Below, piece by piece: positions 26,273-56,207 of a stretch of 60,460 nt of DNA. Origin of the DNA: a virus (lineage: Duplodnaviria > Heunggongvirae > Uroviricota > Caudoviricetes); IMG/VR virus record IMGVR_UViG_3300032167_002916, one strand, 5' to 3'. Both the position numbers and the translations under genes were made by a program. The notes beneath the pieces were generated by a model. It saw only the letters and a list, made by a program, of their open reading frames with translations, had not been told where the DNA came from and did no database searches. Position 1 is the first letter of the stretch. Every line of letters begins with the position of its first letter.

Positions 26273-26284
26273 AGAGGATAATTC

Positions 26285-26908: not shown

Positions 26909-26917
26909 GGTAATATT

Positions 26918-26944: not shown

Positions 26945-27001
26945 ATTGGTAAGTCAAACTAATTAAATAATTTACAATATGAATCAAAGGAGACGATTGT
27001 T

Positions 27002-27268
27002 ATGTGGAAGAAAACACCCCAACCCAGTATTTTGGAACAAAAGGAGGCAGAGCTTGTTGCGCTGAATGTTCAGTCCGCCTCTGCAATTCAGCTCGTCCAG
27101 AATACTATTGATGGACTGAGTGAGACGAATGCTCAGATCCAAGCAAAGATTGAAGAGATTGACGCAATTCAAAAGCGGTTTTCCGATGCTCGTGGTGGCT
27201 TGGAAGCTACCTACAACAAGAATCAGAGAATCATGCAGAACTTTAAGACGATGCTTTGCGTCGAGTAA
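27002..27268 (+). CDS. Coiled-coil hypothetical protein
   Basis: SD AAGGAG; heptad pattern. Confidence 0.65.
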   Translation: MWKKTPQPSILEQKEAELVALNVQSASAIQLVQNTIDGLSETNAQIQAKIEEIDAIQKRFSDARGGLEATYNKNQRIMQNFKTMLCVE

Positions 27269-27284
27269 TACATAGGAGGTTCTG

Positions 27285-27989: not shown

Positions 27990-27995
27990 TGCGTA

Positions 27996-28370
27996 ATGGG
28001 ATTCAGAACAGGTGCGTATGCAATGGTGTGGTCTGTCGAGCCTAAAACAGACACATGGACAAAGGCAAGAATTTCTACTAGCCGAAAGAATAAAGAAACT
28101 GACGAATACGAACAGGATTTCAGCGGGTTCGTTGATTTTTCTGGCACAGCGAGCGCAAAGAAGGCCGCTGCACTGAAGCCAGAGACTAGAATTAAGCTCG
28201 GCGATGTGGATGTAACGAATAAGTATGATGCTAAAGCCGGTGTTACATACACAAACTATAAAGTTTGGTCATTCGAAACTGTTGGTAAGGCAGCCCCAGC
28301 AAATGATGTTGCAGAGCCACAGCCTGCGGTCGACAGCGGAGAAATTGATGATGCAAGACTACCTTTCTAA
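27996..28370 (+). CDS. ssb: Single-stranded DNA-binding protein
   Basis: OB-fold-like body, acidic tail ending DDARLPF, replisome context. Confidence 0.75.
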   Translation: MGFRTGAYAMVWSVEPKTDTWTKARISTSRKNKETDEYEQDFSGFVDFSGTASAKKAAALKPETRIKLGDVDVTNKYDAKAGVTYTNYKVWSFETVGKAAPANDVAEPQPAVDSGEIDDARLPF

Positions 28371-28382
28371 GAAGGTGAATAA

Positions 28383-29183
28383 ATGGGTGAGGTAAATTAC
28401 GCTCCACTCATTGACGACATGAGATGGAGCCACTCAAGAATAGAGGCATATGAGTCGTGTCCATACCGTTGGTATTTGCAGTATATCCGCAAATGCAAAG
28501 ATAAGGAAAATTTTTATGCTTCGTATGGCTCTTTCATGCACCGACTTATTGAAGGGTATTACAACGGTGAGCTCACAAAAGCAGAAATGCTTACTACTTT
28601 TTTGAAGGATTTTCAAAAAGAAGTAAAAGGGGTTCGCCCAAAAGAATCTACGCTAAAAAAGTACATCGATGGTGGAGTTGAATACTTAAAATCTTTTGAA
28701 CCATTCCCATATAAAATGGTTGCCGTTGAAAAAGAGGTGTCCTTTACAATCGGAGGGAAGGAGTTCAAAGGTTTTATTGACTTCGAAGGCATAGATGAAT
28801 CAGATGGCGAGATTGTGATTGGAGATAATAAATCCAGGGATTTGAGGCCAAGAAGTGGCAGAGAGAAACCGACTAAAAAAGATGAGGAGCTGGACGAGGT
28901 TTTTCGCCAGCTCTATCTTTATTCTGTTGCAATCGAGCAAGAGTATGGAAAGCTGCCAAAGGGACTATTTTTGAACTGTTTTAGAACCGGTGTCTTTATT
29001 TATGAACCGTTCGATATGGAGGCTTATGAAGCTGCTAAACAATGGGCGCTCGATCGCATTTCAAAGATCCGAGAAGATAGTGATTTTGAACCAGTTCTAA
29101 ACCCGTTTGCATGTTTTTGGATTTGCGGTGTTAGCGACAGCTGCATTTATTATCTAGAAGACAAGAAAAGTAAACGGAGGTGA
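28383..29183 (+). CDS. PD-(D/E)XK exonuclease (AddB/Cas4-like)
   Basis: SHSRIEAYESCP, GFID, DNKS, QL.LY, C..C C-terminal cluster. Confidence 0.85.
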   Translation: MGEVNYAPLIDDMRWSHSRIEAYESCPYRWYLQYIRKCKDKENFYASYGSFMHRLIEGYYNGELTKAEMLTTFLKDFQKEVKGVRPKESTLKKYIDGGVEYLKSFEPFPYKMVAVEKEVSFTIGGKEFKGFIDFEGIDESDGEIVIGDNKSRDLRPRSGREKPTKKDEELDEVFRQLYLYSVAIEQEYGKLPKGLFLNCFRTGVFIYEPFDMEAYEAAKQWALDRISKIREDSDFEPVLNPFACFWICGVSDSCIYYLEDKKSKRR

Positions 29184-29187
29184 GAAA

Positions 29188-30516
29188 TTGAGAGCAGATG
29201 ATATTTGTAGTATCGACAGTGAAGCTGGAATTATAGCTTCATTGATACATAATCCAGAGCTTTCTTTCTATTCAGAACACTTACTTCCAAACCATTTTAC
29301 GAATAAGGACAATCGTTGTGTCTATACGGCAATTTGTAATTTGGTTGCGCAAGGTATTACTACGGTCGATCCGTACAACATCATAGAATGTTTGAAATCA
29401 TCAGAGGCGACGAGATCATATGCTGATGATTTATCAATTGATAAACTCAATGAACTTATGGATATGAGCGATGTCCTAGTTCGCAAGAGTGTCGAAGAAT
29501 ACAAAATGCTTGTTGCAAATGTAATGGATGCAGCTTTTCGTAGAGACACATTCCAAAAGCTAAAAGACTGCCAGGCGCTTTGCTACAACAGGTCTGAGAA
29601 GAATATTGAGCAGAAGATCTATGATGTGATTGATGAGGTAATGACCGAGTTTTCATCAGCTAATGAGATTCCGGCATATGCGGAAATCATTGACGATTGC
29701 TGGGAGGAAATACAGTCGAGACAGGGAGCAGGATACGCCGGAGTCCCATTTAAGTTTCCGACCCTCAATGAATATGTCACAATCGAAAAAGGAGAGTTGG
29801 TCGTGTTTGCAGCTGAGGCAAAGCAAGGAAAGAGTATGTTTCTTCTGAATTGTGCTATTGACTTGCTAAAGCAGGACTTGGCAGTTTTGTATTTAGACAG
29901 TGAGTTAAATACAAGAATGTTTACTGCGAGAGTGCTCTCTCATCTATCTGGCGTTGAATATAAACGGTTAACATCTGGTGCTTATTCGGAAGAAGAAGCA
30001 GAGAGAATTGAACAGGCAAAAGAGTGGATGAAGACTAGGAAGTTCACACACATCTATATCCCGATGTTTGACCAGCAGAGCATCTATACGGCAATTAAAA
30101 AGGTAAGTCATACCCAGGGTATTGACGTCTTAGTCGTTGATTATTTCAAAGGTAAGGGTGATGGCGATGCCTTTGACTCATACCAGGAGCTTGGTAGATT
30201 TGTCGATATGATTAAGAATCAGGTTTGTGGTGATATGGGTATCGCAGGAATCGGTGCGGCGCAGGCTACAGCAGCAGGAAAGGTTGCAGACTCAGCGAAG
30301 ATTGGTCGAAATGCGAGCACAATCGCACTTATTCAGGACAAGACTCCTGAAGAAGTTGAAGCCGACGGTGTCGAGTGTGGAAACAAAAAGCTGAGAGTGA
30401 TTTTGAACCGAAATGGTATGCAGCATGCCCAAGGAGAATACATAGATCTACAGTTTAACGGAAACTTGGTTTCTTATGAAGAGGCTAAGCAACACATTCC
30501 TCAGAGCCCATATTAA
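29188..30516 (+). CDS. dnaB: Replicative DNA helicase (DnaB-like)
   Basis: AAEAKQGKS Walker A, YLDSEL, LVVDY, AAQ, NRNG. Confidence 0.9.
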   Translation: MRADDICSIDSEAGIIASLIHNPELSFYSEHLLPNHFTNKDNRCVYTAICNLVAQGITTVDPYNIIECLKSSEATRSYADDLSIDKLNELMDMSDVLVRKSVEEYKMLVANVMDAAFRRDTFQKLKDCQALCYNRSEKNIEQKIYDVIDEVMTEFSSANEIPAYAEIIDDCWEEIQSRQGAGYAGVPFKFPTLNEYVTIEKGELVVFAAEAKQGKSMFLLNCAIDLLKQDLAVLYLDSELNTRMFTARVLSHLSGVEYKRLTSGAYSEEEAERIEQAKEWMKTRKFTHIYIPMFDQQSIYTAIKKVSHTQGIDVLVVDYFKGKGDGDAFDSYQELGRFVDMIKNQVCGDMGIAGIGAAQATAAGKVADSAKIGRNASTIALIQDKTPEEVEADGVECGNKKLRVILNRNGMQHAQGEYIDLQFNGNLVSYEEAKQHIPQSPY

Positions 30517-30540
30517 ATGATTTACGAAAGAGGTGATGGC

Positions 30541-31524
30541 GTGGAGCTGAAAGACCTTATAGAAGCGATTGATATCGTGGAGTACATATCACAATATGTA
30601 GACTTAGAAGAGCGAAATGAAGAGTTTTGGGGACTTTCCCCATTTAAGGAGGAGCGAACGCCATCATTCTCTGTCAGAAGAGAGCCGGCTGTTTTTTACG
30701 ATTACAGTTCAGGTATTGGTGGAAATGTTTTTACATTCGTCCGACATTATCACAATCTGAATGCAGAAGAAGCGATTGAAGCTTTGAAAAAGTATGCAGG
30801 GTGCGAAGGTGAGGCTTTGGCACCAAGAGAGAAAATGTCAGCAACAATGGTATGCAAGAAATTCCGTAAAACAAAACAGCGTTCCAAACAATCAAATGGT
30901 GTAGTTTTACCAGATAATTATATGGAACGATATGAAAAGCGTGAAGATAAATTATTAACTTGGCGCAACGAAGGAATTTCGGCGGAGTCCTTGAAAAGAT
31001 TTCAGGTTTTTTATGATAGTTTTTCTGATCGGTTGGTATATCCGATTAGAAATATGGAAGGAAAAATCGTGAATATCGGCGGCAGAACATTAGATCCGCA
31101 ATGGAAAGAGAAAGATCTGAGAAAGTACAATTACTTTTTCTCCTGGGGAACGATGAATACAATCTATGGATTAGCGGAAAATATGGAGGAAATCCTGAGA
31201 AAACGAGAAGTAATCTTGTTTGAGGGATGTAAAAGTGTTTTGATCGCAGATACATGGGGAATAAAAAACACTGGTGCGATTTTGACTTCGCACCTCAATC
31301 CAAATCAAATGAAAATATTGGCACGGCTGGGTTGCCGTGCCGTTTTTGCATTAGATAAGGATGTAAAAATTCGAGACGATCACAATATCAAAAAATTAAA
31401 AGATTATGTGAACGTTGAATATATATGGGATCGCGATGGGCTTCTTGATGAAAAAGACAGCCCTGTAGACAAAGGGAAAGAAGTGTTCAAAGAATTATAC
31501 ACAGGGAGGTTGCGTTATAGATAA
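30541..31524 (+). CDS. dnaG: DNA primase (zinc-binding domain plus TOPRIM)
   Basis: LSPFKEERTPSF, ILFEGCKS, FALDKD, KDSPVD; SD GAGGTG supports GTG 30541. Confidence 0.88.
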   Translation: MELKDLIEAIDIVEYISQYVDLEERNEEFWGLSPFKEERTPSFSVRREPAVFYDYSSGIGGNVFTFVRHYHNLNAEEAIEALKKYAGCEGEALAPREKMSATMVCKKFRKTKQRSKQSNGVVLPDNYMERYEKREDKLLTWRNEGISAESLKRFQVFYDSFSDRLVYPIRNMEGKIVNIGGRTLDPQWKEKDLRKYNYFFSWGTMNTIYGLAENMEEILRKREVILFEGCKSVLIADTWGIKNTGAILTSHLNPNQMKILARLGCRAVFALDKDVKIRDDHNIKKLKDYVNVEYIWDRDGLLDEKDSPVDKGKEVFKELYTGRLRYR

Positions 31525-34500
31525 AAACTATGTGTGCTATCACCTGCACAGTGACTTATCAAACGGAGTTACAAACGTAGATTCTGTCACAAAATATGGT
31601 GAATACATAGAACGTGCCAAAGAGTGTGGCATGAAAGCCCTTGCATTCAGTGAACATGGATCAGTTTTTGAATGGTATCACAAAAAGACTGCGATTGAAA
31701 ATGCGGGAATGAAATATATTCATGCAGCCGAGTTTTATCTCACAGAAACTTTGCAGGAAAAAGTGAGAGATAACTATCACTGTGTTTTGATCGCAAAGAA
31801 TTATGATGGTTTCTTGGAATTGAATAGGTTGTCATCACAATCATTTAATAGAAAGGATAACCACTTTTACTACACACCAAGAATTTCTTTTGATGAGTTG
31901 TTCTCTACGTCTGACAATATAATTGTAACAACTGCATGTGTTGGCGGCGTTCTTGGCAAAGGCCAAGGCTCTACGAAAGAACGTTTTATTTCGTTCCTAT
32001 GTAAAAATAAACACAGGTGTTTTTTAGAGATTGGACACCATATGGACGACAAACAGTTGTTGTACAATAAAAGTTTATATGAGTTACATCGGACCACGGG
32101 CATTCCGCTTATTGCAGGTACAGATACTCATGCTTTGAATGAAGAGCATGAATTAGGAAGAACAATTCTTCAAAGAGCCAAGAACGTTGTTTTTGATGGG
32201 GAAGACAAATGGGATCTCAAATTCAAAACGTATGATGAACTTGTGATTGCATATCGTAAACAACGATCGCTGCCAGAGCAGGTGTATATGGAGGCCATCG
32301 AAAACACAAACCGAATGGCTGAAATGGTTGAGAGTTTTGCTTTAGATAAGGGAACAAAATACCCTCACATTTACGACAACCCAGAGCAAGTTTTCTATGA
32401 CAAAATTCAAACTGCAATTGTTCAACACCCCTATGCTGCAAAAAGACACGGCGTTGAAAAACTAAAGCAAGTGGTTGATGAAGAATTTGAAGTATATAAG
32501 GCTACTCAGTCAATTGACTTTATGCTACTTCAAAGTTATCTGCGTGAATGGGAAAAAGAGCATGGAATCCAATGTGGATACGGAAGAGGCTCAGTCTCTG
32601 GAAGTATGATAGCTTATTTGTTGGGCATCACTCAGATGGATAGCCTACGATTCGGTTTGAACTTCTTCAGATTTATGAATCCCTCTAGAGTTACAAACGC
32701 GGATATCGATACTGACTATTCAAACAAGGATAGAGGAACAGTAAAACAATTCCTCCTAAAAGACAGAATGGGAATTCCGACAATCCGGTCTGCAGAAATT
32801 ATAACATTCAACACAATTGCACTGAAAGGTGCTATTCGTGATGTTTGTAGGTCGTTATATAAAGATGACCCAACGGTAAATTACATACAACTGTCCCGTG
32901 AAATTGCAGATAATGTTGAAGCTCGTGAAGAAGAAATGCGGAAGAAGTATCCGCAGGTTTTCAAATATGTTGATATTGTAAACGGTACGATTGTATCGAT
33001 CGGTACACACCCGAGTGGTGTTTTGATAAGCGATCTAGAGATTGCAGAAACAGTTGGTTTATGCAGTACGTCTACGTCAGATTATCCAATCTCAATGATT
33101 AACATGAAAGAGCTCGACGAATTGATGTACGTCAAGCTCGATATTCTTGGGTTGGATAATATTGGTGTCATTAACGACACCTGTAAAAAACTAGGTATCG
33201 AACGATTAACTCCAGACAATACAGATATGGATGATATGGATGTTTGGAGAAGCATTCGAGATGATACAACCTTAATATTCCAATGGGAAAGCAATTCGGC
33301 TCAGGCGTATATGCGGAAGTTCATGTCAGATTCGACTCTAAGCATTGCACAGTCAAAGATACCTAATTTTTCAATGCTAAAATGGATGTCATTTGGTAAT
33401 GGCTTGTTAAGACCCGCTTGTGCCAGCTTCCGAGATAGTGTTGCAAAAGGTGAGTTCTACGATAATGGTTTCGACGCATTAAATGAGTTCCTCGCTCCAG
33501 AGGCGGGACGAATTGCCATGCAGGAAACGATTATGCAGTTCTTAGTCAAATTCTGTGGATATAATTCTGCAGAATCCGATAATGTGCGTAGAGCAATTGC
33601 AAAGAAAAAGGGTACTGAGACCTTGCTTCCTGAAATTGAAGAACGATTTATTGCATATTGTTCAGAACAATATGATATGACAACTGAACAATGTTTGGAT
33701 ATTATCAAGCCGTTCTTGCAGATCATTTTGGATGCATCAGCATACGGCTTCTCATGGAATCATTCTGATAGCTATAGTTCCATCGGATACATATGTGGAT
33801 ATCTCAGACATTATTATCCGCTTGAATTCCTAACGTCTGCATTAAATATTTTCGGAGATAACCTTGATAAGACAGCCGAAATTACATCATACGCAAAAAA
33901 GCGTGGTATACAGGTAACTATGCCCAAATGGGGATTGTCCAGGAACAAGTACTTCTTTGACAGAGATCGTGGGATTATTGCCAAGGGATTAACATCTATC
34001 AAGTACATGAGCGAAAATTTAGCAAATGAAATGTACGTTTTATCGCAACAGAAAAAGTATACAAGGTTTGTTGAATTACTCAAAGACCTAGACCAAGAAA
34101 CTTGTATCAATACACGCCAGCTTGACATTCTAATCAAGCTGGATTTTTTCTCGGATTTTGGTAATCAAAGAGAACTGCTGCGCATCGTAGACCTGTTTTA
34201 TGAAACGTTCAAAAAAGGACAAGCTAAACAGATTAAGAAGTCTATGGTAGACGGTACTCCAATGGAGGAGATTGTTAAGAGATACTCTGTCGGCGTTACG
34301 AAATCAGGCGGTGTGGCGAAAAACTATACACTCCTCGATGTTTTCTCCATTCTTAAAGAGGTGGAGGATGCTATTAAAGCTGTTGGAATGCCTGATTTGA
34401 ATGACATAGATAAAGTGAGAAACTTCTATGACGTCATGGGCTATATCGGATATACCTCTGGTAAGCAGGAAGATAGACGAAAACTATATGTGATGGATGT

Positions 34501-44053: not shown

Positions 44054-44567
44054 GAAGTTGAGAGAACACGCAATCATCCCTGCAATTGGATCTAAAGAAG
44101 CTGCTGGCGCTGACTTATACGCATGTGGTGAGACTGAAGATTTTTCCGTAATGATTCATCCGGGAGAAACCGTGATGATTGGCACTGGTGTCGCCATGGC
44201 TATTCCCAAGAGCTGTGTTGGCTTAGTTTTTGCTCGTAGTGGCATGGCTACAAAGAGAGGTCTGCGTCCTGCAAACTGTGTTGGTGTCATTGATAGTGAC
44301 TACCGTGGTGAAATTATCGTAGCACTACATAACGACAGCGATGGTCATGAGATCATCAAAAGCGGTGAAAGAATCGCCCAGCTAGTTATTGTTCCATATA
44401 TCAAAGTCGAGTGCGCTGTCACTGATGAACTAGACTCCACTGAACGTGGTGAAGGTGGCTTCGGCAGCACGGGTTACTTCTCTAATGATTTCGGTCAAAT
44501 GAACTTCCTTGATCTCCTGTTCGGTAAACACGAAGAAGATGAAAAGGTAAACGATGGAACTGTTTGA
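44037..44567 (+). CDS. dut: Trimeric dUTPase
   Basis: AAGADL, RSG, GVIDSDYRGE, RIAQL, RGEGGFGSTG. Confidence 0.96.
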   Translation: MKIKTKKLREHAIIPAIGSKEAAGADLYACGETEDFSVMIHPGETVMIGTGVAMAIPKSCVGLVFARSGMATKRGLRPANCVGVIDSDYRGEIIVALHNDSDGHEIIKSGERIAQLVIVPYIKVECAVTDELDSTERGEGGFGSTGYFSNDFGQMNFLDLLFGKHEEDEKVNDGTV

Positions 44568-44787
44568 TGTTTACTTCGAAGTGCTAATTGATGAAAAAGT
44601 GGTTATGAAATTCACAATGAGAGCGCCAGCCGATGCAATAATCGCACATTTCGTTGATACAGCAAGACAAATTAAAAATGACCCTAGACATATGAAGCTC
44701 CGAGTTGTAAGGCCGGAGTTGATATGGGATCAATTCGATAGGGAGCACAGAGTGCTAGAAAACTGCATCGAAATTCAGAATTATTAA
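44554..44787 (+). CDS. Hypothetical small protein, last gene of the + strand block
   Basis: SD AAGGT, overlaps dut stop. Confidence 0.6.
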   Translation: MELFDVYFEVLIDEKVVMKFTMRAPADAIIAHFVDTARQIKNDPRHMKLRVVRPELIWDQFDREHRVLENCIEIQNY

Positions 44788-44791
44788 CATT

Positions 44792-44828
44792 AGTGGTGGT
44801 GCTTATTGTGCCACCGCTTTTATTTTTT
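44792..44828 (+). terminator. Terminator at the strand-convergence point, overlapping the tniQ stop codon
   Basis: 11-bp stem (44792-802/44808-818, with G-U pairs), T-rich tail; tniQ stop lies in the loop. Confidence 0.7.
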
Positions 44829-46122
44829 CTGCAATAATTGGATCGTCAAGATACGGAAGAGAAGCGATGACATTCCGTACACGCATATTTGTTAATTTCA
44901 TCAATCCTGTCATATGCACTACGCCAACCGAACCCAACATTGTCTTAGCCGCCCATTCCAGCTCCCGTGCCCAATATTGTTCCTGGGACTCCGTGTACTT
45001 CATAATTTCTGCACGACACAAAGGATAATTCCGCAGCCCGTTCTTCGGCATACCAAGCATCCGTTCGATCATACCAACGGAGATTCTTACTGGGCGTTGG
45101 TCTGGATGCTGCCGAACACTGGCGATTACGTCTATGACCTTCGGAAGTGTGTCAATATCTTTGGCATTCCAATCATGCTTTTTCGCACCGCCGTTTGTGT
45201 GAGATTCCTTAGATTTGCATGACGGCACATACTCTGGCAATTCAATCGATGACAGGTCGCCTGCAGGTATTTCGAGGAACATGGCGAGCATACATATTTC
45301 CACAATGTTGGTGCGTACACCAGAGAACACCTTCTCTATTTGCCAATCCTGCTTAAATTTAGGACATGGAAAATCTTTGTAAAAATCCATGAAATCTGAA
45401 TGTAGAAGTTCAATATATCTCTTGCGCCCGTGGCTGGATAGATATTTTGTTCCTGCCAATCGATAGTGCAGGAATCTACCGACAGGCGCGTCTGATTTGA
45501 TGTCCAGATCCGCAGTAAAAACTTCTGCGACATATTCAGCCAGACGGCACTCCAACTCTTTCTCGGTAAATATAATCTCTGCATCAGATATTTCGTCTTC
45601 TGCAGTAATCAGATTTGGACTCACGGAGCTGTTGGTCGGGATGGCGCTGTTAATCAGCCGGCACTGGTGGGCGGGGCAGACATCTACTCCGACCATCTGA
45701 TGAATCCTGTGCCAATAGGTTTCTCCGAACCGCTCTCTATCATTTTGAACACAGGCAGGGCAGTATCGGAGATAACGTACAGACCTACTTTTTGGAATAG
45801 GTAGGAGCCGCCGATAATCTGTTCGCATATTGACCAGAGAGTTAAAAGCTCCCATCCTGCGCTCCGCCTTCAGGAACCGACCATAATACGGGAACATCGT
45901 GTGCTTCATAATAATTTCTTCTAACGGCATTGTCGAAGTAATTACAGAAAACGCTTCTGGCGTATAGGCGTTCAGAAACTCCACATCCGGTCTGACAGTC
46001 TTACTTTGAAATAACTGCTCTGCAGTGAAGATATATGCTAGGTTCCCAGAACGTGCATGGTATCGAGCCAGCTGACTGTACAGCAGTTCGTCGGGATAAA
46101 TCGCAGGAAATTGTGTAATCAT
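44803..46122 (-). CDS. tniQ: TniQ/TnsD-family target selector
   Basis: YPDELLYS.LARY, CPAC...ETYWHRIHQ..GV.VCPAHQC zinc finger, TnsD-like C-terminal extension. Confidence 0.88.
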   Translation of the reverse strand: MITQFPAIYPDELLYSQLARYHARSGNLAYIFTAEQLFQSKTVRPDVEFLNAYTPEAFSVITSTMPLEEIIMKHTMFPYYGRFLKAERRMGAFNSLVNMRTDYRRLLPIPKSRSVRYLRYCPACVQNDRERFGETYWHRIHQMVGVDVCPAHQCRLINSAIPTNSSVSPNLITAEDEISDAEIIFTEKELECRLAEYVAEVFTADLDIKSDAPVGRFLHYRLAGTKYLSSHGRKRYIELLHSDFMDFYKDFPCPKFKQDWQIEKVFSGVRTNIVEICMLAMFLEIPAGDLSSIELPEYVPSCKSKESHTNGGAKKHDWNAKDIDTLPKVIDVIASVRQHPDQRPVRISVGMIERMLGMPKNGLRNYPLCRAEIMKYTESQEQYWARELEWAAKTMLGSVGVVHMTGLMKLTNMRVRNVIASLPYLDDPIIAEKIKAVAQ

Positions 46123-47369
46123 ACTGCCACCTCCAGTACAGGAATGTAATCTCGCAGTAAAGTGAGCATATCCAGATTCTGTTCCTTCGTTGCCGCCGCT
46201 AACTGAGAGATAATATTTTCACCTTCAACGATTACTTTTGCGCTTGCCTTTTGGGCAGGCGCTTTTTTTATTTTCGGCGCCGCCAACGGCTTCCCTGTAA
46301 CAGAAGGTGCAATATATACGTGTAACATAGAGAGTCGTTGCTGATAAGCTATAGCCAGTGTTTCCAGATTTAATATCTCTTTACCATTCAAAATGGCAAT
46401 CTCCTGTGCATCATGCACCAGAGATACAACAACAGAAATTATTCCTGCGCTATGTTCATACAGCCATTCCGTAATCCCTTCGGTCAACTGACTGCTATTT
46501 TTCGTGTACTGGTGGGAGAACAAGGTTTCGCAGAAATACTGAAAGAATTCATCGTAATCCAGTCTACCATATTGGATGCCGACCGATCTGCGTGCCAGCT
46601 GCATCGCTTGTTCAAAGAAGACTGCGCTTTCGGGCGTACCAACCATACAGATAGAGATCCCACTATTATTTATGAGCTGCGTCAGCATACCGACCAAACT
46701 CTTCCCATTTTTACTGTTGACCACATTCTGGATCTCGTCTACAATAAGAAGACCTATATGGTTTAGAGCAACCTGGCTGACGCTGCCAATCAGCATATCC
46801 GTAGTGGCCCGAACCCGCATTGCATTTTCATAATAATTGCTGCAAATGCGCTCGTCCACTTTTCGCAGTATTTCTAAGAGTAGCCCCTTGACCGAAGAAT
46901 CAAATGGACACTGTACAGTCAGACAGGGGATGATGGTTGTATACGGACTGTCCAAAGAAATAATCCTGTCCTCAGTAATCAGAGAGATAGCCCTACTGAT
47001 GGCGGCACTCTTACCGATACCAGATGCCCCGATGATTGTAAAGCTGTCAGCGCCTCCGATGATTCCAGAATGTGGCTGATTTTTAATTGCTCTATAATTC
47101 TGCATCTGCTGCCGGATTGCGAGGGTGGTCTGTTTCTTCTGCAATGATTGTAACAGCGCCAGATACAGCCTACTGTATATCTCTACAGACATTTGCGAAG
47201 GAAGATAGAAGTTATACAAATCGGACAAGGACATGAGACGTGTTGCCGCATCAGCATTTCTAATAGATTCATCGTATTCAGGCAGCATTTCTAATGCCGA
47301 TAGGAGTTCTTTACCAGCCAGCATAAGCGGCAACTTTGATACCAAGTTCTGTCTAACCATTGAGTTCAC
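46119..47369 (-). CDS. tnsC: TnsC AAA+ transposition regulator
   Basis: GASGIGKS Walker A, LLIVDEIQN Walker B, ICMVGTP, ARR. Confidence 0.9.
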   Translation of the reverse strand: MNSMVRQNLVSKLPLMLAGKELLSALEMLPEYDESIRNADAATRLMSLSDLYNFYLPSQMSVEIYSRLYLALLQSLQKKQTTLAIRQQMQNYRAIKNQPHSGIIGGADSFTIIGASGIGKSAAISRAISLITEDRIISLDSPYTTIIPCLTVQCPFDSSVKGLLLEILRKVDERICSNYYENAMRVRATTDMLIGSVSQVALNHIGLLIVDEIQNVVNSKNGKSLVGMLTQLINNSGISICMVGTPESAVFFEQAMQLARRSVGIQYGRLDYDEFFQYFCETLFSHQYTKNSSQLTEGITEWLYEHSAGIISVVVSLVHDAQEIAILNGKEILNLETLAIAYQQRLSMLHVYIAPSVTGKPLAAPKIKKAPAQKASAKVIVEGENIISQLAAATKEQNLDMLTLLRDYIPVLEVAV

Positions 47370-49185
47370 CAGCCTTCATATAATCAGTGTGGGTCTTGCG
47401 CTGAGCACGTTTTCTGTTCTCTCGTACGGACTTTATCTGTGTGTTTTTGGAAGAATTTGCTGTGCTTGCAATCGTGCAAATATGGTCAGCTAGATCGATT
47501 TTTGCTTGTAAATTTTCCTGTGTGGCACTCTTAATAATTGCTCTCTGAGCCGTCTGCATCGCTTGTGTGGCACTTAACTCCTTGCCGTTGAATCTGCGCT
47601 CAACCAGTTCAAAACGGACGTAGGAACCGTTCTCGATCAGCCACACGCATGACACATCATCAGGATTATAGGCAACGGTTGCAGTACCTCCTTTGAGATA
47701 TGCCTCGGTGTAATCGTCATGGGCATACCGCATTTGATTGACTTTCAATCCGTTTCGTGCAAATGTTCCAGTCGTTCTTGGTAACAGTGTCAGCAGAAGA
47801 TGCTCCCGGCTTACAGATATGAGATTAGCTCCTGGAAGCTTCATACTCCAATTCCAGATTGCACTTGCCGTTGGCTGGACATTATCAGTTAGCATTTCTT
47901 CTGTATAAGGAAAGTTCTCAATTACACGGTTGCAATTGTAATACACGATGCACCGAAGCAAAATCTTTTCAAATGCTTCTAATGTTAGACAGGCATCTTT
48001 TCTATAATCATGTGCGCCTCGTTCCTGAAAGTCAGGATCGATTACCCCCTTGCCCTTCAAATGAGGCTTGTACAGGTCTTGCACAATATCAAAGAACTTT
48101 TCTACAGAGCCTTTCAGCTCCGGACGATATGGGGGAAGATTGATAAGCCTAACTCCAAGCTCAACGATTTGTTCAAAATTGGCAGACTTATATTCGCTTC
48201 CTTTGTCTGTAACCAGTGTTGCAGGGAGCTGGTTGCAACACCAGTCATCCTCATTTATAATTATGCCAAATTGTTTGCATAAGTCCGTTTTATTGGCTAT
48301 AACAGACGTCAGAAGCCTCCGTAAGCTTTGAACTCCGCCTTCCCATGAAAGGGCATACCCGCAACAAAGACCGCTGTAAGCGTCGACACAGGCCGTCAGG
48401 ATGGGTCTTCCTATAAGGTTATTTGCTTCATCAACTAAGTAAATGTCACAGATTGTTGAGTCCAACATTGCAACGCCTATTGCGGGTGCAAACTCGCGAA
48501 CGCCATCTCCGATTAGCGGTCGACTATTCCGCTGGTAGTTCTTAATTCCATTCCTTGAGATATAGTAAGTCTGTAGCTTCTTATGCTTTCTGTAAAAGTA
48601 ACGAAACTGGTTAAAAGTAGGGAAGTCCGGAAGGAGAGTCCCGGTTTCATCACTATATTTTTCTTTCAACATCATCGTATATGCGGTTGGTAAACTGTTC
48701 TGATTTTTCGTGTAGAAGAATTTGTTCAGCGCCCACCGCATATTTTTTTCGTCTTTACTTAGGGGCCGTTCGTCTTCTATTCGCTTTGGGGCAAGAGCAG
48801 ATATATTCTGAAATGCCAAATACAGACACAAATAATTGCGTACAGTCTGTTTGCATATTTCGTGCTCATCGGCGATTCGAGAAATAACTGCACTTCTCAT
48901 TTTTTCATCAGTGAGGAAGGGGAGTACTCCGGCGATAACAGTGTAGCGCTCATGTACGATTTTTCTTGTTGCAGCATCTAAAGCATCTGGGTCGAATATC
49001 TCAACATCAGACAAGCCAATCAGATCCTGCTCCGTAACCACCTCTCCGCACAGATTATCAGCCGGATACCATTTTGGCATATTTCTTTTCAAGCAATCAA
49101 TGGCTAACACGCGGTCTTTATCAACAGACAGAATCCGATATACAGAGCACTCATTCCGAATCAAATCATTTTTCTGCATCGACAA
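47353..49185 (-). CDS. tnsB: TnsB DDE transposase (Mu/Tn7 family)
   Basis: LDST (D), VTDKGSEY (D), KGSVEKFF (E), PT..QFRY HTH region, Mu-like C-terminal beta domain. Confidence 0.92.
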   Translation of the reverse strand: MSMQKNDLIRNECSVYRILSVDKDRVLAIDCLKRNMPKWYPADNLCGEVVTEQDLIGLSDVEIFDPDALDAATRKIVHERYTVIAGVLPFLTDEKMRSAVISRIADEHEICKQTVRNYLCLYLAFQNISALAPKRIEDERPLSKDEKNMRWALNKFFYTKNQNSLPTAYTMMLKEKYSDETGTLLPDFPTFNQFRYFYRKHKKLQTYYISRNGIKNYQRNSRPLIGDGVREFAPAIGVAMLDSTICDIYLVDEANNLIGRPILTACVDAYSGLCCGYALSWEGGVQSLRRLLTSVIANKTDLCKQFGIIINEDDWCCNQLPATLVTDKGSEYKSANFEQIVELGVRLINLPPYRPELKGSVEKFFDIVQDLYKPHLKGKGVIDPDFQERGAHDYRKDACLTLEAFEKILLRCIVYYNCNRVIENFPYTEEMLTDNVQPTASAIWNWSMKLPGANLISVSREHLLLTLLPRTTGTFARNGLKVNQMRYAHDDYTEAYLKGGTATVAYNPDDVSCVWLIENGSYVRFELVERRFNGKELSATQAMQTAQRAIIKSATQENLQAKIDLADHICTIASTANSSKNTQIKSVRENRKRAQRKTHTDYMKAGELNG

Positions 49186-49504
49186 CTAACCCCCAATCAG
49201 AAACACCACGGCTCAACCAATACTCTCTCGAAATGTCCAATAGTTTAACTGTCATTGGCTTCGTCAAATGACTGCGCTGTACACACTCTCTGACCATCTG
49301 TTCTCCATCTGCTTTTATACAAAGGAAGTCTGTTGTGTAATCCTCCGTATCTAGCAAGACGTTACACCAAAATTGAGAGACACCGTCATCATCCTGCAAA
49401 GCCTTCGCATACGCCATTTGGATTGGGTCGTATGTCTTACAAACTCCTTGGCATTTTGAGAGAGAAACCTTTTCGCACCTACCCTTGTAGTTTTTCTTAC
49501 GCAT
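49166..49504 (-). CDS. tnsA: Minimal TnsA-like endonuclease-fold protein (112 aa)
   Basis: YTTDFL...VREC, R.YW...G..W.LV; SD GGAGG at 49511-15 supports ATG 49504. Confidence 0.7.
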   Translation of the reverse strand: MRKKNYKGRCEKVSLSKCQGVCKTYDPIQMAYAKALQDDDGVSQFWCNVLLDTEDYTTDFLCIKADGEQMVRECVQRSHLTKPMTVKLLDISREYWLSRGVSDWGLVVDAEK

Positions 49505-49514
49505 TTTGCACCTC

Positions 49515-49697
49515 CATATGTTTTCCCAAAAACATCCCAAAAATTTCCCAAATCCTTCCCAAAAATGAATTTGGGGATTTTCGCCTCAAATTTGGGAACT
49601 TGTAAAAGTTGTGAGATCATATGTTAGTCCCTAGTTGCCTGAACTTTTTTGCGGAACAATTCCCCAAAAATTTCCCCAAAAATGAGATTCCCAAAAA
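49515..49697. repeat. Array of (T)TCCC(C)AAA(AA) motifs, candidate transposase-binding / attachment junction
   Basis: CCCAAA at 49525, 49536, 49547, 49558 (11-bp period); inverted TTTGGG at 49570 and 49591; CCCAAA at 49663, 49675, 49690. Confidence 0.8.
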
Positions 49698-49826
49698 TCT
49701 CTATGTCATGGGGCAAACCCGTTTTCGCTCATTTTGATGGCTGAAAAAGGGTAGGGGAAATGAATATAAAATGCCGGTTTCATAACATATAGCCTCAACA
49801 ACTCAAGGTTTCACCGTGCTTTGCGT

Positions 49827-49866
49827 AAAAAAATAGACCTCAAAGGAAAAATCCTTCAAGGTCTAT
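49827..49866 (-). terminator. Intrinsic terminator (minus strand)
   Basis: ATAGACCT...AGGA-AAAA-TCCT...AGGTCTAT stem with A7 on + strand. Confidence 0.75.
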
Positions 49867-49933
49867 CTAGCGAAAAAATTTATGCCTTTTCAGCGAAAAT
49901 CAGTTTTGCAAGCACATAGAGTAAACCTTGTAC
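49827..49933 (-). ncRNA. Putative ~105-nt small RNA or attenuated leader
   Basis: Bounded by a consensus promoter and a terminator; only a 5-codon ORF inside. Confidence 0.5.
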
Positions 49934-49937
49934 TTAC

Positions 49938-49966
49938 AGTATAGCACACGAAAGTGCCTATGTCAA
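49938..49966 (-). promoter_or_regulatory. sigmaA/sigma70-type promoter
   Basis: TTGACA-17 bp-TATACT on the minus strand. Confidence 0.85.
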
Positions 49967-49979
49967 ATTTATAGGGCGC

Positions 49980-50012
49980 AAAAAAAAGCGAGCCATCATA
50001 TCGATGACTCGC
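49980..50012 (-). terminator. Terminator closing the lysis module
   Basis: GCGAG-C-CATC/GATG-A-CTCGC stem with A8 on + strand. Confidence 0.7.
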
Positions 50013-50052
50013 AATTACTGGTTCATTCCAAAGCTACACACCCACTTTTGCT

Positions 50053-50625
50053 TTAGTTTGAATTAGGCTTTTCGGGGACACCATTAGAATCCACGATTAG
50101 CAGTTGCTCCATCTTCGGAAGCACCTCGCTATGTACGTATCCATTTCCACCCATGTCCTCATAGTCACGGAACAGCTCCCAGAAGGTTTCTGCCTCCATG
50201 TGAGTCCAAGTCTGGTTGGGGTTGGTCTTTGGATTCGTGTAGTATCTAAAGTTCTGCAGAAGTAAGTCTCTCAACTTATTTCTATTTCTTCTGTTTGACT
50301 GTTCTTCGTTCTGATCCATCCGAGCTTGTAGATCTTTAAGTGCCTCGGTGTTCTGTCGCTGCATTTCTCGAATCTCTTGGATTTCACCTTCGAGCAATTG
50401 CTGGATCTGAACACTCTGCTTCCGGTATTCAGGATACTTGCTTACAGCTTCCCAGGTTTGTCTCATCTGCTCGTCCTTCTGTCTTTTTGCTTCATATAAA
50501 GCAATTAGCTTGTCCCAGATTCTCTTGCACACCGTTATCACGAAGGCCAGTGCTAGACCCCATATGACTACATCGCCAAGAGTAATATCGCCGAATGCAG
50601 TCAAAAATGCGTCTACGGCTTTCAA
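50053..50625 (-). CDS. Membrane-anchored coiled-coil protein of the lysis module
   Basis: N-terminal TM, coiled coil, WELFRDYEDMGGNG motif. Confidence 0.7.
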   Translation of the reverse strand: MKAVDAFLTAFGDITLGDVVIWGLALAFVITVCKRIWDKLIALYEAKRQKDEQMRQTWEAVSKYPEYRKQSVQIQQLLEGEIQEIREMQRQNTEALKDLQARMDQNEEQSNRRNRNKLRDLLLQNFRYYTNPKTNPNQTWTHMEAETFWELFRDYEDMGGNGYVHSEVLPKMEQLLIVDSNGVPEKPNSN

Positions 50626-50654: not shown

Positions 50655-52106
50655 TTACTGCTTTTGACAATACTGTAGTGATACCCAGCCAGAAATCTCC
50701 TGCAGTTTGCCCCATCCGTTCTGAACCTCAGAAAGAGTGTAAACCGCATTCTTCTTGACGGTAGTCTTTACAGCATAGTTAGTTCCTGCGCCTTTACGAA
50801 CGTTCAGGAGATTTGCCACTACGATAACTGTGTCGCCGGCATTGAAAGAGCCAGCCAGAGCGGATTTGATAGCTGCCTGGGTTAAAGGACCGGCGATTCC
50901 GTCTCTGGTCAAGTTATGCTTTTTCTGGAATTCGCGAACAGCATTTGCCGTCTTAGCCCCATAGATGCCATCAGCCGTACCGCAAGAATGTCCAAGCGTA
51001 TTCAGATTCTCTTGAAGCGTTTTGACAGCTTCACCAGAGCTACCCTGACTAAGGGTCTTGTATGTAGTACTGGTGGTGTTGGTCGTTGTGGTTGTTCCGG
51101 TAGTAGTATTGGCTGGTGCTGAACCGCCAAAGGTAGAACGATATGCTTCCTTCTGACCGTACCAGAAGCTCTTCTTTTCACGAGTATCGATGTGTACGAA
51201 ATGACCATCGCTAGACGTTTCGTATAGACCAATACCCATGATGCCAATGCTCTCGGCGTACTTAGCGACTTCTCTGGGCGCTACACCCTTAACAACAATG
51301 TCTGCAGCATCGCCCTTGGAATGTCTTGAGCCTGTTGCTCCACCGATACGAGAATTGTGGGTCGGGCACCGGTACGGACTGGTAATTGTAATAGGGGCAT
51401 TGAAGTGGTTTCTGATTTTTTCCAAATACTCAATGAGCTTTTCATTGACGACGGTCTGGGAGCAGCAACCTCTGCCATGGCAATCAAATTCAGTAGAGAC
51501 AAAATGCTCAGACACCTTTACGGACTGGCCTTTTGTAAAATACAAATAGCCCATGTTCTCCACTCCTTTCGTAGAATTGGTCACAAATAGCGTGTAGTAT
51601 TTTTGACCGAAGCTCGCACGTTTGATTTTGTGGGATTCTGCATTATAAGGACATTCGAATTCCATAAGGACGATATCCGACGCTTCCATGACAGAAGTAG
51701 CGGTCTTCAGCACGTTGAGAACTTTTGAAAAACTTTTTTGGAGTTCGATAAAAAGGTACTCCAACTGCATCTCCAGGTCTCCAATTGATCTGCCTGTTGA
51801 CTTTGCGTATTCGTACAGCGCCTTCTTTCGTGTCCAATAAGTCCATTGACATAGGCCAAATCCTGCTTGGTCGTAGACGAATTGTTCCTTTGTATAGACA
51901 CCGCTGTCCACCAACGCGACATAGGTTTCATCATTGCATTTCAATCGTCCCTGACACGAATCCTGCAAGTTGATGGAAATCAAAGCAGATTCTGCGTCAA
52001 TGTTTCCCATAAGTCCCGCTGCTCCATATGGAGTCAGTCCTTTAGCAATACAGAAATTCCATATCCTTTGTGCGTTTGTGCTTCCAACCAAAGCCATTGG
52101 AATCAC
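50655..52106 (-). CDS. Modular endolysin: phage-tail-lysozyme-like, peptidase M15, PG-binding and SH3b domains
   Basis: GLMGNIDAES..GLCQWT; SPYRCPTHN..SRH..AADI..FVHIDTR; LSQGSSGEAVKTLQ..DGIYG; LNVRKGAGT..GWVS. Confidence 0.88.
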   Translation of the reverse strand: MIPMALVGSTNAQRIWNFCIAKGLTPYGAAGLMGNIDAESALISINLQDSCQGRLKCNDETYVALVDSGVYTKEQFVYDQAGFGLCQWTYWTRKKALYEYAKSTGRSIGDLEMQLEYLFIELQKSFSKVLNVLKTATSVMEASDIVLMEFECPYNAESHKIKRASFGQKYYTLFVTNSTKGVENMGYLYFTKGQSVKVSEHFVSTEFDCHGRGCCSQTVVNEKLIEYLEKIRNHFNAPITITSPYRCPTHNSRIGGATGSRHSKGDAADIVVKGVAPREVAKYAESIGIMGIGLYETSSDGHFVHIDTREKKSFWYGQKEAYRSTFGGSAPANTTTGTTTTTNTTSTTYKTLSQGSSGEAVKTLQENLNTLGHSCGTADGIYGAKTANAVREFQKKHNLTRDGIAGPLTQAAIKSALAGSFNAGDTVIVVANLLNVRKGAGTNYAVKTTVKKNAVYTLSEVQNGWGKLQEISGWVSLQYCQKQ

Positions 52107-52130
52107 CTCGCTTGCATATAGTAGTACTTC

Positions 52131-52163
52131 GGGGAGTGCATCCGGGCGTCCCGGTCACTCCCC
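52131..52163. promoter_or_regulatory. Strong GC hairpin between holin and endolysin
   Basis: GGGGAGTG/CACTCCCC plus CCGGG/CCCGG; T run follows on the + strand. Confidence 0.6.
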
Positions 52164-52170
52164 TTTGTTT

Positions 52171-52572
52171 TTATTCAGCCTTCTCAGCTGCTTCGTTTTC
52201 CTCGAAGATCTTGCGCATGGTCTTCAGAGCCTCGTCAATAGCCTCGTCGATCCATGCAATCACGTCTGCCTGATTAGTGACCTTGGACAGAATGGGATAC
52301 ATCGCAAAGACCTCGTCGATGACCTGAGCACGCTTAATCTCACCGGACTTGACCCACTCGTAGTAGTCGCACTCGGCCTCAGTAACCAAGCGAAGCATGA
52401 CTTCCTTAATTTGAGCCTTGGCAATTTCCAACTGCTCGTCCTGAGACTTGCTGAAGAACTCCATGGCCTTCTTGCCGATAGCAATAATCAGAACAATGAT
52501 GGCAAAAATCATCGTCCAGTTGTTGTTCACGAAATTCAAAAAATTATAGATGCCATCCAAAACAATGTTCAT
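52171..52572 (-). CDS. Holin-like protein (LL-H type)
   Basis: One N-terminal TM, LVTEAE...G..KRA.V, IDEA pattern; directly upstream of endolysin. Confidence 0.7.
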   Translation of the reverse strand: MNIVLDGIYNFLNFVNNNWTMIFAIIVLIIAIGKKAMEFFSKSQDEQLEIAKAQIKEVMLRLVTEAECDYYEWVKSGEIKRAQVIDEVFAMYPILSKVTNQADVIAWIDEAIDEALKTMRKIFEENEAAEKAE

Positions 52573-54343: not shown

Positions 54344-55078
54344 TCAAGCTCCTATCTGCTCCATAATTGTCTTGAATACATCAGTCATATACTCTTCTGG
54401 GATAGGCATGCCATACTCAACTGCCATAATCTCGTCAACAGTGTCCATAGACTGAATGTAGACTCTTAGGTTATTGAAATAGGACTCCTGATAAATCTTC
54501 CACTGAGTCGCCGTACTAGCCACAAGCTGGAAATCTTCTGCCGAGAAGTAACGACACTCTTCGCCATCAGCGTGGTAAGGAACCGCCTCTGCGCCCGACA
54601 GGATCAATGACTGCAAAGACATCAGGTTCAACTGATCTTCCAGCTTCAGGGAGAAGTGGTACTTTACGCCATCAGAAAGAACAACATCGATACCGTTCGT
54701 TATGACTTCACCACAAGTGGCACTCATCTTTTTAATGATAGTCTCCCGAACAAACTCAACGGTTGCATTAGCAGGTATTTCAGGATCTTCCTCGGGCTGA
54801 ATAACCGGTCCTGCGATATCTAAAGCCTTCACGAGGGCTTCATATTCAGTTTCATTGATGTACTCGATGGTCACGATACCAGCAGTGGTGACATTATCTG
54901 GGAACAGATGCCATCCTTCGACCTGATAAATTTCACCAGTACGTTCAGACACAATGCCGTTGGGCTTGTCCTTGGAACCGCATCTCAGAACCAGGCCGGA
55001 TCGCTTGTCGTACTTACAATATCTTAACTCTTTATAAGCATCGATAATTTGTCCATTAAGGACTATTTGTGCAAACAT
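54344..55078 (-). CDS. Tail-associated protein with DUF4376-like C-terminus
   Basis: HFSLKLEDQLNL, YHADGEECRYFS..F; SD GGAGGG supports ATG 55078. Confidence 0.7.
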   Translation of the reverse strand: MFAQIVLNGQIIDAYKELRYCKYDKRSGLVLRCGSKDKPNGIVSERTGEIYQVEGWHLFPDNVTTAGIVTIEYINETEYEALVKALDIAGPVIQPEEDPEIPANATVEFVRETIIKKMSATCGEVITNGIDVVLSDGVKYHFSLKLEDQLNLMSLQSLILSGAEAVPYHADGEECRYFSAEDFQLVASTATQWKIYQESYFNNLRVYIQSMDTVDEIMAVEYGMPIPEEYMTDVFKTIMEQIGA

Positions 55079-56207
55079 TATATTCCCTCCAATCTGAGTT
55101 AAATAGTTCACCAAACAGCTTCTCCATGTTCTTTATCGTGTGCCATGCATTAAAGTTCGACGCATACGCCTTCCAACTTTGCCAACTGGAATACGCATCC
55201 ATCATTGTCATCTTGCCGGTTGCGATAAGCTCTTTGAATTTCTTAATCTTTTTGCGCTGTTTAGTTACGGATCTACGATAGATTTTGCGAACGATCTTGC
55301 CAGAGGGCAGCAAGAAGAATCGCACCTTCAGCCAAGTAAAGCCGTGCGATAGTTTAACAATTTGAGTCTTCTTTTCGTTCAACTTAATATCGAGTCTTCT
55401 GCAAAGAATCTTGATAGCCTGCATACACTTTTGCAGATGTTCTTTGCTGTGGTGGATTAAATATCCATCGTCCATGTATCGTCCATATCCGCGAATCTGA
55501 GCCTTCTCCTTGATATAGTGGTCGAGACGGTTTGCAGACGCCAAGGCGAGAACCTGGCTGATCTGACTTCCGAGTCCCATTCCTACGTCGCCGAAAGCAT
55601 CGATAAAGTGTTCCATAATGGCAATGAGACGCTCGTCAGTGAACTCTTTATGAAGGATTGCCTTTACAAGCTTGTGAGATACTCTATCAAAGAACTTGCT
55701 AAAATCGAATAGGAGGATATAGCCTTCTGTGCCATGCTTACGGTAGTGCTCACGGAGGTGCTGGCAGATACGATTGATAGCAAACGTATATCCCTTATTC
55801 TCCATACTTGCACCATTATCATAAATAAAGGTACGTCCTACCATGGGAACAAGAGCGTAATCGCACAGACAACGCTGCACAACTCTTTCTCCAATAGTAA
55901 CAGATTTGATGTGTCGTTTCTTTCCTCGCTCATAAACGTCGAACTCAATAAAGCCTTTCGTTCTGTATCTGCCGTCCATGAGTTGGTCATAAGTGTGACG
56001 AACATTTAATGGTGCATTGGTGATATACCGCTGCACACTGGCTTTCCAGCCAACGTTACGGCGGCACTTCTTATAAGCTTCGTACAGGTGACGGTACGAA
56101 AATACTTGTTCGTAGTCATCATACTTCGCACAGAGTTCACGCTTGTGAGCGGCTCTCTTTGCCACTCTGCGTTGAAACCTGGCTTCTCTACGTTCTTCAC
56201 TTGTCAT
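55056..56207 (-). CDS. DGR reverse transcriptase
   Basis: KKRHI, ERVVQR, FDFSKFFD, GLGSQISQ, YGRYMDD, K.NEKKT; adjacent TR and avd. Confidence 0.96.
   Translation of the reverse strand: MTSEERREARFQRRVAKRAAHKRELCAKYDDYEQVFSYRHLYEAYKKCRRNVGWKASVQRYITNAPLNVRHTYDQLMDGRYRTKGFIEFDVYERGKKRHIKSVTIGERVVQRCLCDYALVPMVGRTFIYDNGASMENKGYTFAINRICQHLREHYRKHGTEGYILLFDFSKFFDRVSHKLVKAILHKEFTDERLIAIMEHFIDAFGDVGMGLGSQISQVLALASANRLDHYIKEKAQIRGYGRYMDDGYLIHHSKEHLQKCMQAIKILCRRLDIKLNEKKTQIVKLSHGFTWLKVRFFLLPSGKIVRKIYRRSVTKQRKKIKKFKELIATGKMTMMDAYSSWQSWKAYASNFNAWHTIKNMEKLFGELFNSDWREYNVCTNSP

Follow-up and report, generated by a model that had tools for sequence, protein, structure and literature searches.

Tn7 carries four packed TnsB sites in its right end, Tn7R, where direct sites point toward tnsA, and its TnsB sites overlap the tnsAB promoter. 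Active-site mutants of Tn7 TnsA yield replicative cointegrates. In bacteriophage Mu, a cluster of sites called the operator/enhancer (O1-O2/IAS) serves both repression and transpososome assembly. Arrays of the omega or ParR type consist of short phased repeats in mixed orientation around a promoter. For Tn7 relatives without TnsA, namely Tn5053/Tn402 and type V-K CAST, donor-target fusions flanked by two direct transposon copies are described in PMC8649781.

Here we report on a stretch of 60,460 bp of phage DNA (from now on called the window), in which a tnsA-tnsB-tnsC-tniQ operon in the gene order of Tn7 lies beside one transposon end:

49166..49504, minus strand: tnsA-like gene, 112 aa, nuclease N-domain only, with E-C-V replacing E-x-K
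47353..49185, minus strand: tnsB, 610 aa, DDE transposase, Tn7 TnsB-like
46119..47369, minus strand: tnsC/tniB AAA+ ATPase, Pfam TniB match with E 1.5e-13
44803..46122, minus strand: tniQ target selector of the guaA-type clade, Pfam TniQ match with E 3.8e-23

A sequence-profile search of the PDB with the TnsA-like protein gave no match and the Pfam family Tn7_TnsA-like_N matched below its cutoff; the fold search alone succeeded, with the TnsA structures 1T0F and 1F1Z as top Foldseek matches (TMq 0.77-0.81, E 1e-6) to an AF2 model of pLDDT 92. In an alignment of 13 sequences, residues D59 and E73 are invariant and position 75 is V or I throughout, so the catalytic signature E...D...(D/E)xK is not present, where residues were mapped onto Tn7 TnsA by fold topology and not by residue-level superposition. 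Helix 1 carries Q29. Since R72 and R77 are conserved close by, TnsA may have kept activity despite the missing lysine. The protein ends at 112 aa and thus lacks the C-terminal domain of Tn7 TnsA. By analogy with Tn7 TnsA mutants and with the TnsA-less relatives, cleavage of the 5′ strand has probably been lost. Within this TnsA-like family, three cysteines (C10, C22 and C74) never vary and two more (C47 and C62) hardly do, and they may form a metal site; Tn7 TnsA is not known for conserved cysteines.

TnsB matched the phrog_310 transposase family (E 2e-35) and, weakly, the Pfam families rve and Mu-transpos_C, while PF27135 HTH_TnsB is recorded for a product identical to it. It is 26% identical over 98% of its length to annotated TnsB genes that lie beside TnsA. 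In a model of its first 205 residues, two helical DNA-binding domains come after a small beta-barrel, and this model matches 7PIK, Tn7 TnsB on right-end DNA, with E 1e-8. Plasmids yielded only distant TnsB proteins of at most 28% identity, and the phage records in GenBank contained no near-identical DNA and only distant TnsB matches. The window TniQ is 41-53% identical to guaA-associated TniQs versus 30-34% to ppdK-associated ones; the TniQ clade tracks the attachment site, and the window TniQ falls into a clade that is found only at guaA. The locus is Tn7-like by its TnsB, its TnsC/TniB together with TniQ, the TnsA fold and, as detailed below for the family, TGT...ACA termini, a 5-bp duplication and oriented insertion.

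Upstream of this operon, at a strand switch, a 545-bp intergenic region contains a conspicuous array of short repeats:

49515..49700, minus strand: repeat array, in the tnsA sense composed of D1-D3, promoter core, I1-I2, D4-D7 and RBS; consensus YRTTTTTGGGRAA
49663..49695, minus strand: upstream direct repeats D1-D3, CCCAAA on the plus strand at 49690, 49675 and 49663
49604..49655, minus strand: 52-bp core with a candidate sigma-70-type promoter toward tnsA, TTCAGG (49643-49638), 16-nt spacer, TATGAT (49621-49616), predicted
49606-49577, minus strand: weaker alternative promoter TTTACA-18-GAAAAT, predicted by promoter scoring
49570..49596, minus strand: inverted repeats I1 and I2, TTTGGG on the plus strand at 49591 and 49570
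49525..49563, minus strand: direct repeats D4-D7, four copies with an 11-bp period, running up to the Shine-Dalgarno sequence of tnsA

A motif count over the window found all nine hexamers of the array where the original prediction, made from the sequence alone, had put them: four copies of CCCAAA on the plus strand at 49525, 49536, 49547 and 49558 with an exact 11-bp period, two inverted copies (TTTGGG) at 49570 and 49591, and three further direct copies at 49663, 49675 and 49690. The other elements of that description were recovered at their coordinates as well. The repeat search gave the 11/13 inverted pair 49591-49603 / 49656-49668 (13 nt, 85% complementary, 52 nt between the arms), and the inner 7-mer pair AAAAGTT/AACTTTT at 49604-10 and 49642-48, as well as two copies of CATATGTT..TCCC at 49515 and 49618, can be read in the sequence. 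Nine of the 30 CCCAAA hexamers of the window sit between 49525 and 49695, a clustering well above chance. Shuffled sequence has about 32 CCCAAA per window, so that about 0.09 are expected per 170 bp versus the nine present in the array; the same count revealed no second CCCAAA cluster in the 60,460 bp. The promoter candidate in the core is a weak consensus match only, according to both promoter scan and scoring. No Rfam family matched near its thresholds across 49300-50100.

This array had been interpreted as the joined ends of a transposon. Some of that interpretation has held up, namely the assignment to a Tn7-like tns locus, the short distance between two ends just upstream of tnsA and the existence of junction sequences. 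Place and motif of the ends were wrong, since the termini lie outside the array, at 49704 and 49916, and belong to another sequence type, TGT-N4-5-GGGCAA:

49704..49916, minus strand: end module S, 213 bp, with a terminator hairpin between two inverted transposon termini
From 49916, minus strand: outer (alpha) terminus, TGTGCTTGCAAAAC...
From 49704, plus strand: inner (beta) terminus, TGTCATGGGGCAAAC...
49833..49866, minus strand: hairpin and T-run terminator in S, of the AGACCTTG...CAAGGTCT type, kept in all phage and bacterial copies
49938..49966, minus strand: promoter outside the alpha terminus, reading into S, TTGACA-17-TATACT

Termini of the type 5′-TGT-N4-5-GGGCAA align across the family; about 23 bp further inside they have a second repeat, GGCAAA, giving two GGGCAA-type repeats per end. 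The inverted copy of the terminus is located in the relatives about 210-410 bp inside the outer end, just before the array, which begins 4-8 bp from the inner terminus; in the window, D1, the outermost array repeat, stops 8 bp short of it. The ends of S face inward, which makes S a mini-transposon and not a pair of abutted giant-transposon ends. Elsewhere in the window, the search for the outer end in inverted orientation gave no score above background, and a left end beside tniQ was considered and rejected, as 44567-44803 holds only a 77-aa ORF and a terminator.

Contig boundaries point to the same termini. Contigs L096 and L073 begin exactly at the outer TGT, and in 14 contigs, three of them from phages, the start lies 53-55, 71-85, 116-118 or 140-141 nt ahead of the inner ACA. 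The majority of these offsets come near k values in common use by assemblers (55, 77, 119 and 141). Such starts are expected from de Bruijn graph branching at the inner-ACA base, which argues that the inner terminus is a real junction in nature.

Several further features of S and its borders were observed. The promoter at the alpha terminus and the S hairpin together predict an RNA of about 100 nt across the terminus (49824-49966, minus strand; MFE -29.5 kcal/mol, z -3.5). This promoter block is kept in all phage clades and also left of the second S copy (S2) in bacterial elements, and the leader sequence ACAAGGT is complementary to the 5′ arm of the S hairpin, a pairing that co-varies in L001. 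The flanks of S at 49698-49703 and 49917-49922 are inverted-symmetric (...ACTCTA-S-TAGAGA...; ATACTA-S-TAGTAT in L001); they are not a target duplication and may be a conserved cleavage context for a one-backbone transposon. A variant of the phage of the window (L112:2723-3421, ENA ERZ28593851) contains a tandem duplication of about 140 bp in S, corresponding to window positions 49730-49869, by which the hairpin and the region downstream of it are doubled.

The bacterial form of the element has the structure S-array-tnsABCQ-cargo-S (from now on S-X-S), with the S copies in direct orientation, and is located downstream of guaA or ppdK. The conserved sequence starts 6-8 bp after the guaA stop codon (S. 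ovata, S. aerivorans, L025, L031, L020, L024 and L107) or, in the ppdK-associated elements, shortly after the ppdK stop, at TGT. The two S copies were compared in four elements:

S. ovata: S copies 47 kb apart, one indel in 250 nt
S. aerivorans: S copies about 25 kb apart, 100% identity over the aligned parts
L024 (a MAG): S copies 14.4 kb apart, 100% identity
L062 (Anaerotruncus): S copies 10 kb apart, about 94% identity

Target duplications of 5 bp flank the whole S-X-S and not each single S (AAAGA/AAAGA in S. ovata, ATTTT/ATTTC in L062), so in the bacterial relatives the donor backbone lies between two direct S copies within a single target duplication. Junctions between S2 and host DNA were found in the relatives at the beta terminus. 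The far S copy is preceded on its left by the block TATAAT-N8-CAAGGTC-N-ATACTA, directly before the TGT. All phage clades have this block in the same place beside their single S, the window version being TATACT...ACAAGGT...CTCTA before the TGT. Three relative phage genomes that are 100% complete contain S once and no other end. Judged by the single S in the phages and the shared left flank, the phage form corresponds to the chromosomal S-X-S as a circle with one S, in which the whole phage genome takes the position of the cargo. A large integrated prophage was sought among the 80 retrieved bacterial loci, but apart from the tns genes none of these shares phage genes with the window, and the L020 and L024 cargo does not resemble phage DNA.

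Two of these chromosomal elements have been rearranged further. The far S copy of S. aerivorans (L101, 2228600-2232000) is split by a 2.4-kb insertion with TGT...ACA ends and a 5-bp AGAAT duplication, which looks like another DDE element. In the L062 genome, four S copies in one orientation occur within 41 kb (G011:C19:68349-109075), which suggests tandem accretion of S-sharing modules in the manner of IS26 arrays.

A junction of the very sequence of the window was obtained as well. Among contigs that encode an identical TnsA protein we found L107 (ENA ERZ27248306, 4,027 bp), of which bases 95-4027 equal window positions 49916-45984 over 3,933 bp with 100% identity and no gap. Bases 1-94 comprise the tail of guaA (...PKPIGTIEWE*) followed by 8 bp, and the break falls exactly at the outer TGT (49916). 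An assembly chimera is implausible, because the break coincides with the predicted TGT and has the same distance to the guaA stop as in the chromosomal relatives. L107 is the integrated junction of this same element, at 49916. It may derive from a recently transferred, 100% identical chromosomal copy instead of the phage, and it may have arisen by RecA-dependent homologous recombination with a resident S instead of replicative transposition. Contigs of the phage form are also present, in the same and in other studies, and numerous metagenomes contain this phage, its contigs reaching 142-144 kb. L107 and the phage-form contigs come from samples that include ENA ERZ27248306, ERZ27248370 and ERZ27248436 and JGI 3300024268 and 3300018495.

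These integrated sequences decide about the proposal that the array consists of TnsB sites from two ends joined near 49611-49641, and that integration at this point would separate tnsA from its promoters and so act as a switch. The site orientation does change within the array, and the 11/13 inverted pair flanks the 52-bp core, as such an arrangement would have it. However, the array is unbroken and still contiguous with tnsA in the integrated copies of L107, which is 100% identical to the window, and of S. ovata, S. aerivorans, L024 and L062. There is consequently neither a junction at 49611-49641 nor a separation of tnsA from its promoters. Junctions map instead to 49916 and, in the relatives, to the counterpart of 49704, the array lacks family-type TGT/ACA termini, and the chromosomal elements show the same D-P-I-D layout as the phages. 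We regard joined ends within the array as very improbable. The repeats are thereby re-mapped to a likely control array, with the real ends and the integration junction 4 to 216 bp away.

The original prediction had named a motif comparison upstream of homologous tnsA genes as a check, and this comparison bore the array out as a conserved feature. TnsB relatives were found at 19 loci in IMG/VR, many of them on contigs of 200-220 kb, and at least 179 more loci were detected in bacterial genomes, 80 of which were retrieved for comparison. The bacterial loci belong to Clostridia and Negativicutes and include complete Sporomusa genomes; further loci are located in phages of 140-220 kb. At least three TTTGGG/CCCAAA copies were present within 290 bp upstream of tnsA in 91 of the 97 usable tnsA-tnsB-tnsC-tniQ loci, and the motif density in this region was 18.9 per kb versus 0.39 per kb elsewhere in the same loci. 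The site consensus over the homologous loci is YRTTTTTGGGRAA. In five relative phage genomes that are 98-100% complete (CheckV), the motif cluster was found only at tnsA.

The layout was kept as well. In the tnsA sense, one to three direct sites are followed by a spacer, one to three inverted sites and two to four direct sites up to the RBS; D[P]IIDD is the most frequent arrangement, DDD[P]IIDDDD that of the window. The best sigma-70-like match in the relatives is most often predicted between the first D group and the I repeats, so that the layout around the best promoter candidate is conserved. Spacing varies (11, 13, 15 nt, up to more than 20 bp), as does the number of sites, from 4 to more than 10; the variable spacing suggests that the units are bound one at a time. 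The motif differs by clade (TTTGGGRA, TTTGGGTA, TTTAGGAA) with the layout unchanged, and two phage clades combine this layout with a motif of their own, GTTTTTAGGAAA in one and TTTGGGTA in the other. In L001 and L002, TTTAGG arrays go along with GGGCAA termini; hence, the array motif does not co-vary with the terminal motif.

On this comparative basis we consider it likely that the array is an operator or accessory array bound by an element-encoded protein, while the identification of this protein as TnsB is tentative. The array would then be the cis-acting control and accessory-binding region of the tnsA-tnsB-tnsC-tniQ operon, its short YRTTTTTGGGRAA sites being bound one by one by a protein of the element, for which TnsB is the foremost candidate. 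Sites would flank and cover promoter and leader, with three direct sites upstream and two inverted plus four direct sites downstream to the RBS, and we infer that their occupancy would throttle transposase expression. The array may also mark the adjacent inner terminus for transpososome assembly. It lies outside the mini-transposon, on the tnsA side only, is centred on the promoter candidate and is inherited with tnsA-B-C-Q whatever the cargo, which makes an operator with a core-encoded binder the simplest reading. As the array motif does not follow GGGCAA, this binder or its binding domain may differ from the reader of the termini.

The position of the array beside the termini could also mean that its repeats are structural right-end TnsB sites as in Tn7R, needed for transposition and for left/right asymmetry and not for regulation. 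Direct sites that point toward tnsA and are packed beside it are as in Tn7R, the array is only 4-8 bp away from the inner terminus, T-N-GGG-N-AA loosely resembles the terminal TAGGGCAA, and the N-terminal region of TnsB is Tn7 TnsB-like. Against this, the array is outside the inner terminus and hence not within the S mini-transposon, and the far S copy works as an end without it, as in L062 and S. ovata, where no array adjoins the far S. The number and spacing of the sites vary widely and, in L001 and L002, they do not co-vary with the termini. We therefore consider purely structural sites unlikely.

Phased short repeats of mixed orientation around a promoter, with a motif that evolves independently of the terminal motif, are reminiscent of omega/ParR-type arrays, and operators for another regulator, which might be a repressor of phage or host origin or a protein of the RHH/omega or ParR kind and would link tns expression to lysis-lysogeny or partition, were considered for this reason. 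However, about 90 chromosomal elements whose cargo is unrelated, and also distant clades of phages, have the array together with tnsA, which argues that its binder is encoded in the core (tnsA-B-C-Q) or universal, and no conserved small regulator gene is linked to the operon. This makes a separate regulator improbable. The 11-bp phased direct repeats in a long intergenic region at a strand switch would also suit replication-origin iterons, but the same array is found in non-replicating chromosomal insertions, always at tnsA, and no initiator gene is adjacent. Readings as iterons or origin and as a centromere were rejected because of this tie to tnsA in chromosomal elements, and we assign iterons a close to negligible probability. 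Our preferred reading thus remains an operator or accessory array for a protein of the element.

Turning from expression to integration, we infer from the compared sequences that integration of the phage probably proceeds through Tn7-like transposition of S in the replicative (cointegrate) mode. In the proposed mechanism, S would be the only complete end pair in the phage, with the tns genes and the whole phage genome on the donor backbone, and TniQ would direct the machinery to the 3′ flank of the host guaA. A TnsA remnant that lacks the catalytic lysine would leave 3′-end transfer as the only reaction, and the phage would become fused into the chromosome through replication across S, in the order guaA-S-array-tnsABCQ-phage-S. 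The probable loss of 5′-strand cleavage would favour replicative cointegrates, matching the S-X-S product that was observed.

The right junction predicted from this is ...CCCCATGACA, then GAATT, then the DNA downstream of the host guaA. For the phage of the window, a junction was recovered on the left side only, in L107. A search for the right-hand junction (S2-host) in metagenomes with the 17-mer of the inner terminus gave only chance matches among the matches listed, and a longer pattern had no match in viral contigs. Contigs that carry the 190-aa ORF were of the phage form only or ended inside S, with no S2-host junction among them.

Taken together, large Clostridia phages (~143-220 kb) would need no integrase for lysogeny: guided by TniQ, a Tn7-like machine whose mini-TnsA is nuclease-dead would replicatively transpose a 213-bp mini-transposon, yielding a stable S-phage-S cointegrate after guaA, the TTTGGG array would serve as a TnsB-responsive timing operator/enhancer, and the S-X-S islands of Clostridia and Negativicutes would be made likewise from circular donors. 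We give this scenario as a whole an even chance of being right. If its mechanism is true, it is a new lysogeny route for very large phages, and also a natural system by which more than 140 kb can be placed at the guaA 3′ flank, the circular donor carrying no more than a 213-bp end cassette.

Compared with Tn7, the family shares the 5′-TGT...ACA-3′ termini and 5-bp target duplications, the insertion just after a conserved gene with the tnsA-proximal end adjoining that gene, the folds of TnsA and TnsB, and repeats between the end and tnsA. It differs in that TnsA is a 112-aa N-domain without catalytic lysine or C-terminal domain, each end is a whole 210-410-bp module with both termini, the tnsA-proximal array has another motif and lies outside the inner terminus, and the attachment sites are guaA/ppdK, whereas Tn7 uses glmS. 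The components are Tn7-like; the unusual points are the end module with its two termini, the location of the transposase genes outside the duplicated unit, an integrated state that apparently stays a cointegrate, and an entire large phage as the backbone.

With Mu, the phage of the window has in common a cluster of short direct and inverted sites where the transposase promoter lies, not far from one end, and a DDE transposase with an AAA+ partner. In contrast to Mu, no Mu-type repressor was found in it, its ends are not at the genome termini, and integration would be site-specific via TniQ. The phage of the window encodes a replisome (PolIII alpha, DnaB) and so, unlike Mu, probably does not replicate by transposition. 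TnGBS-type ICEs and Mu-like transposable phages are likewise large self-transmissible elements in which a DDE transposase replaces a tyrosine or serine integrase, but they have outer ends of their own, abutted in the circle or flanked by host DNA, whereas here a mini-transposon inside the genome would mediate the cointegrate.

Pseudo-compound transposons and translocatable units of IS26 resemble S-X-S in that a short element in direct repeat flanks the cargo, a one-copy circular form exists and arrays can share copies, as in L062 with its four S copies; however, the transposase family is unrelated, S is protein-less and targeting is by TniQ. The predicted chemistry, 3′-end transfer only, is that of the TnsA-less Tn7 relatives (PMC8649781). 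Different from those relatives, the cointegrate here is apparently a stable end state, the transposase genes lie outside the duplicated unit, and no resolvase is linked, except for a serine recombinase inserted in L089. This resolvase-like gene (L089:1280-1600), located between tnsA and tnsB, was the only linked resolvase candidate found.

With at least 179 bacterial loci in addition to the phage clades, this is apparently a large, undescribed branch of Tn7-like elements, characterized by two-terminus end modules, a lysine-less nuclease-domain TnsA and an integrated form that looks like an unresolved cointegrate. Our literature search found no account of the family, of Tn7-like elements attached at guaA/ppdK or of integration or lysogeny through a phage-borne tnsABCQ, which is not proof of novelty. 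The position of the module is syntenic across phage clades with TnsB proteins only 50-55% identical, which indicates that it has been kept for a long time.

The genes around the operon are those of a phage and encode PolIII alpha, DnaB, NrdD, a dUTPase, an endolysin and a reverse transcriptase. The latter (55056-56207; RVT_1, E 1e-16) lies beside a 1,068-aa DUF6273 protein, an arrangement that fits a diversity-generating retroelement. The nearest phage record (G001) was examined as a possible empty site and discarded, since its contig ends before the region and matches only 25000-31921 and 52101-52500. In L105, L107 and a contig from ERZ27248370, which represent this phage in different samples, the sequence stops at 46000-46122, within tniQ codons 40-46, and two other contigs of this phage end within tnsB, which may reflect strain divergence or recombination in the operon.
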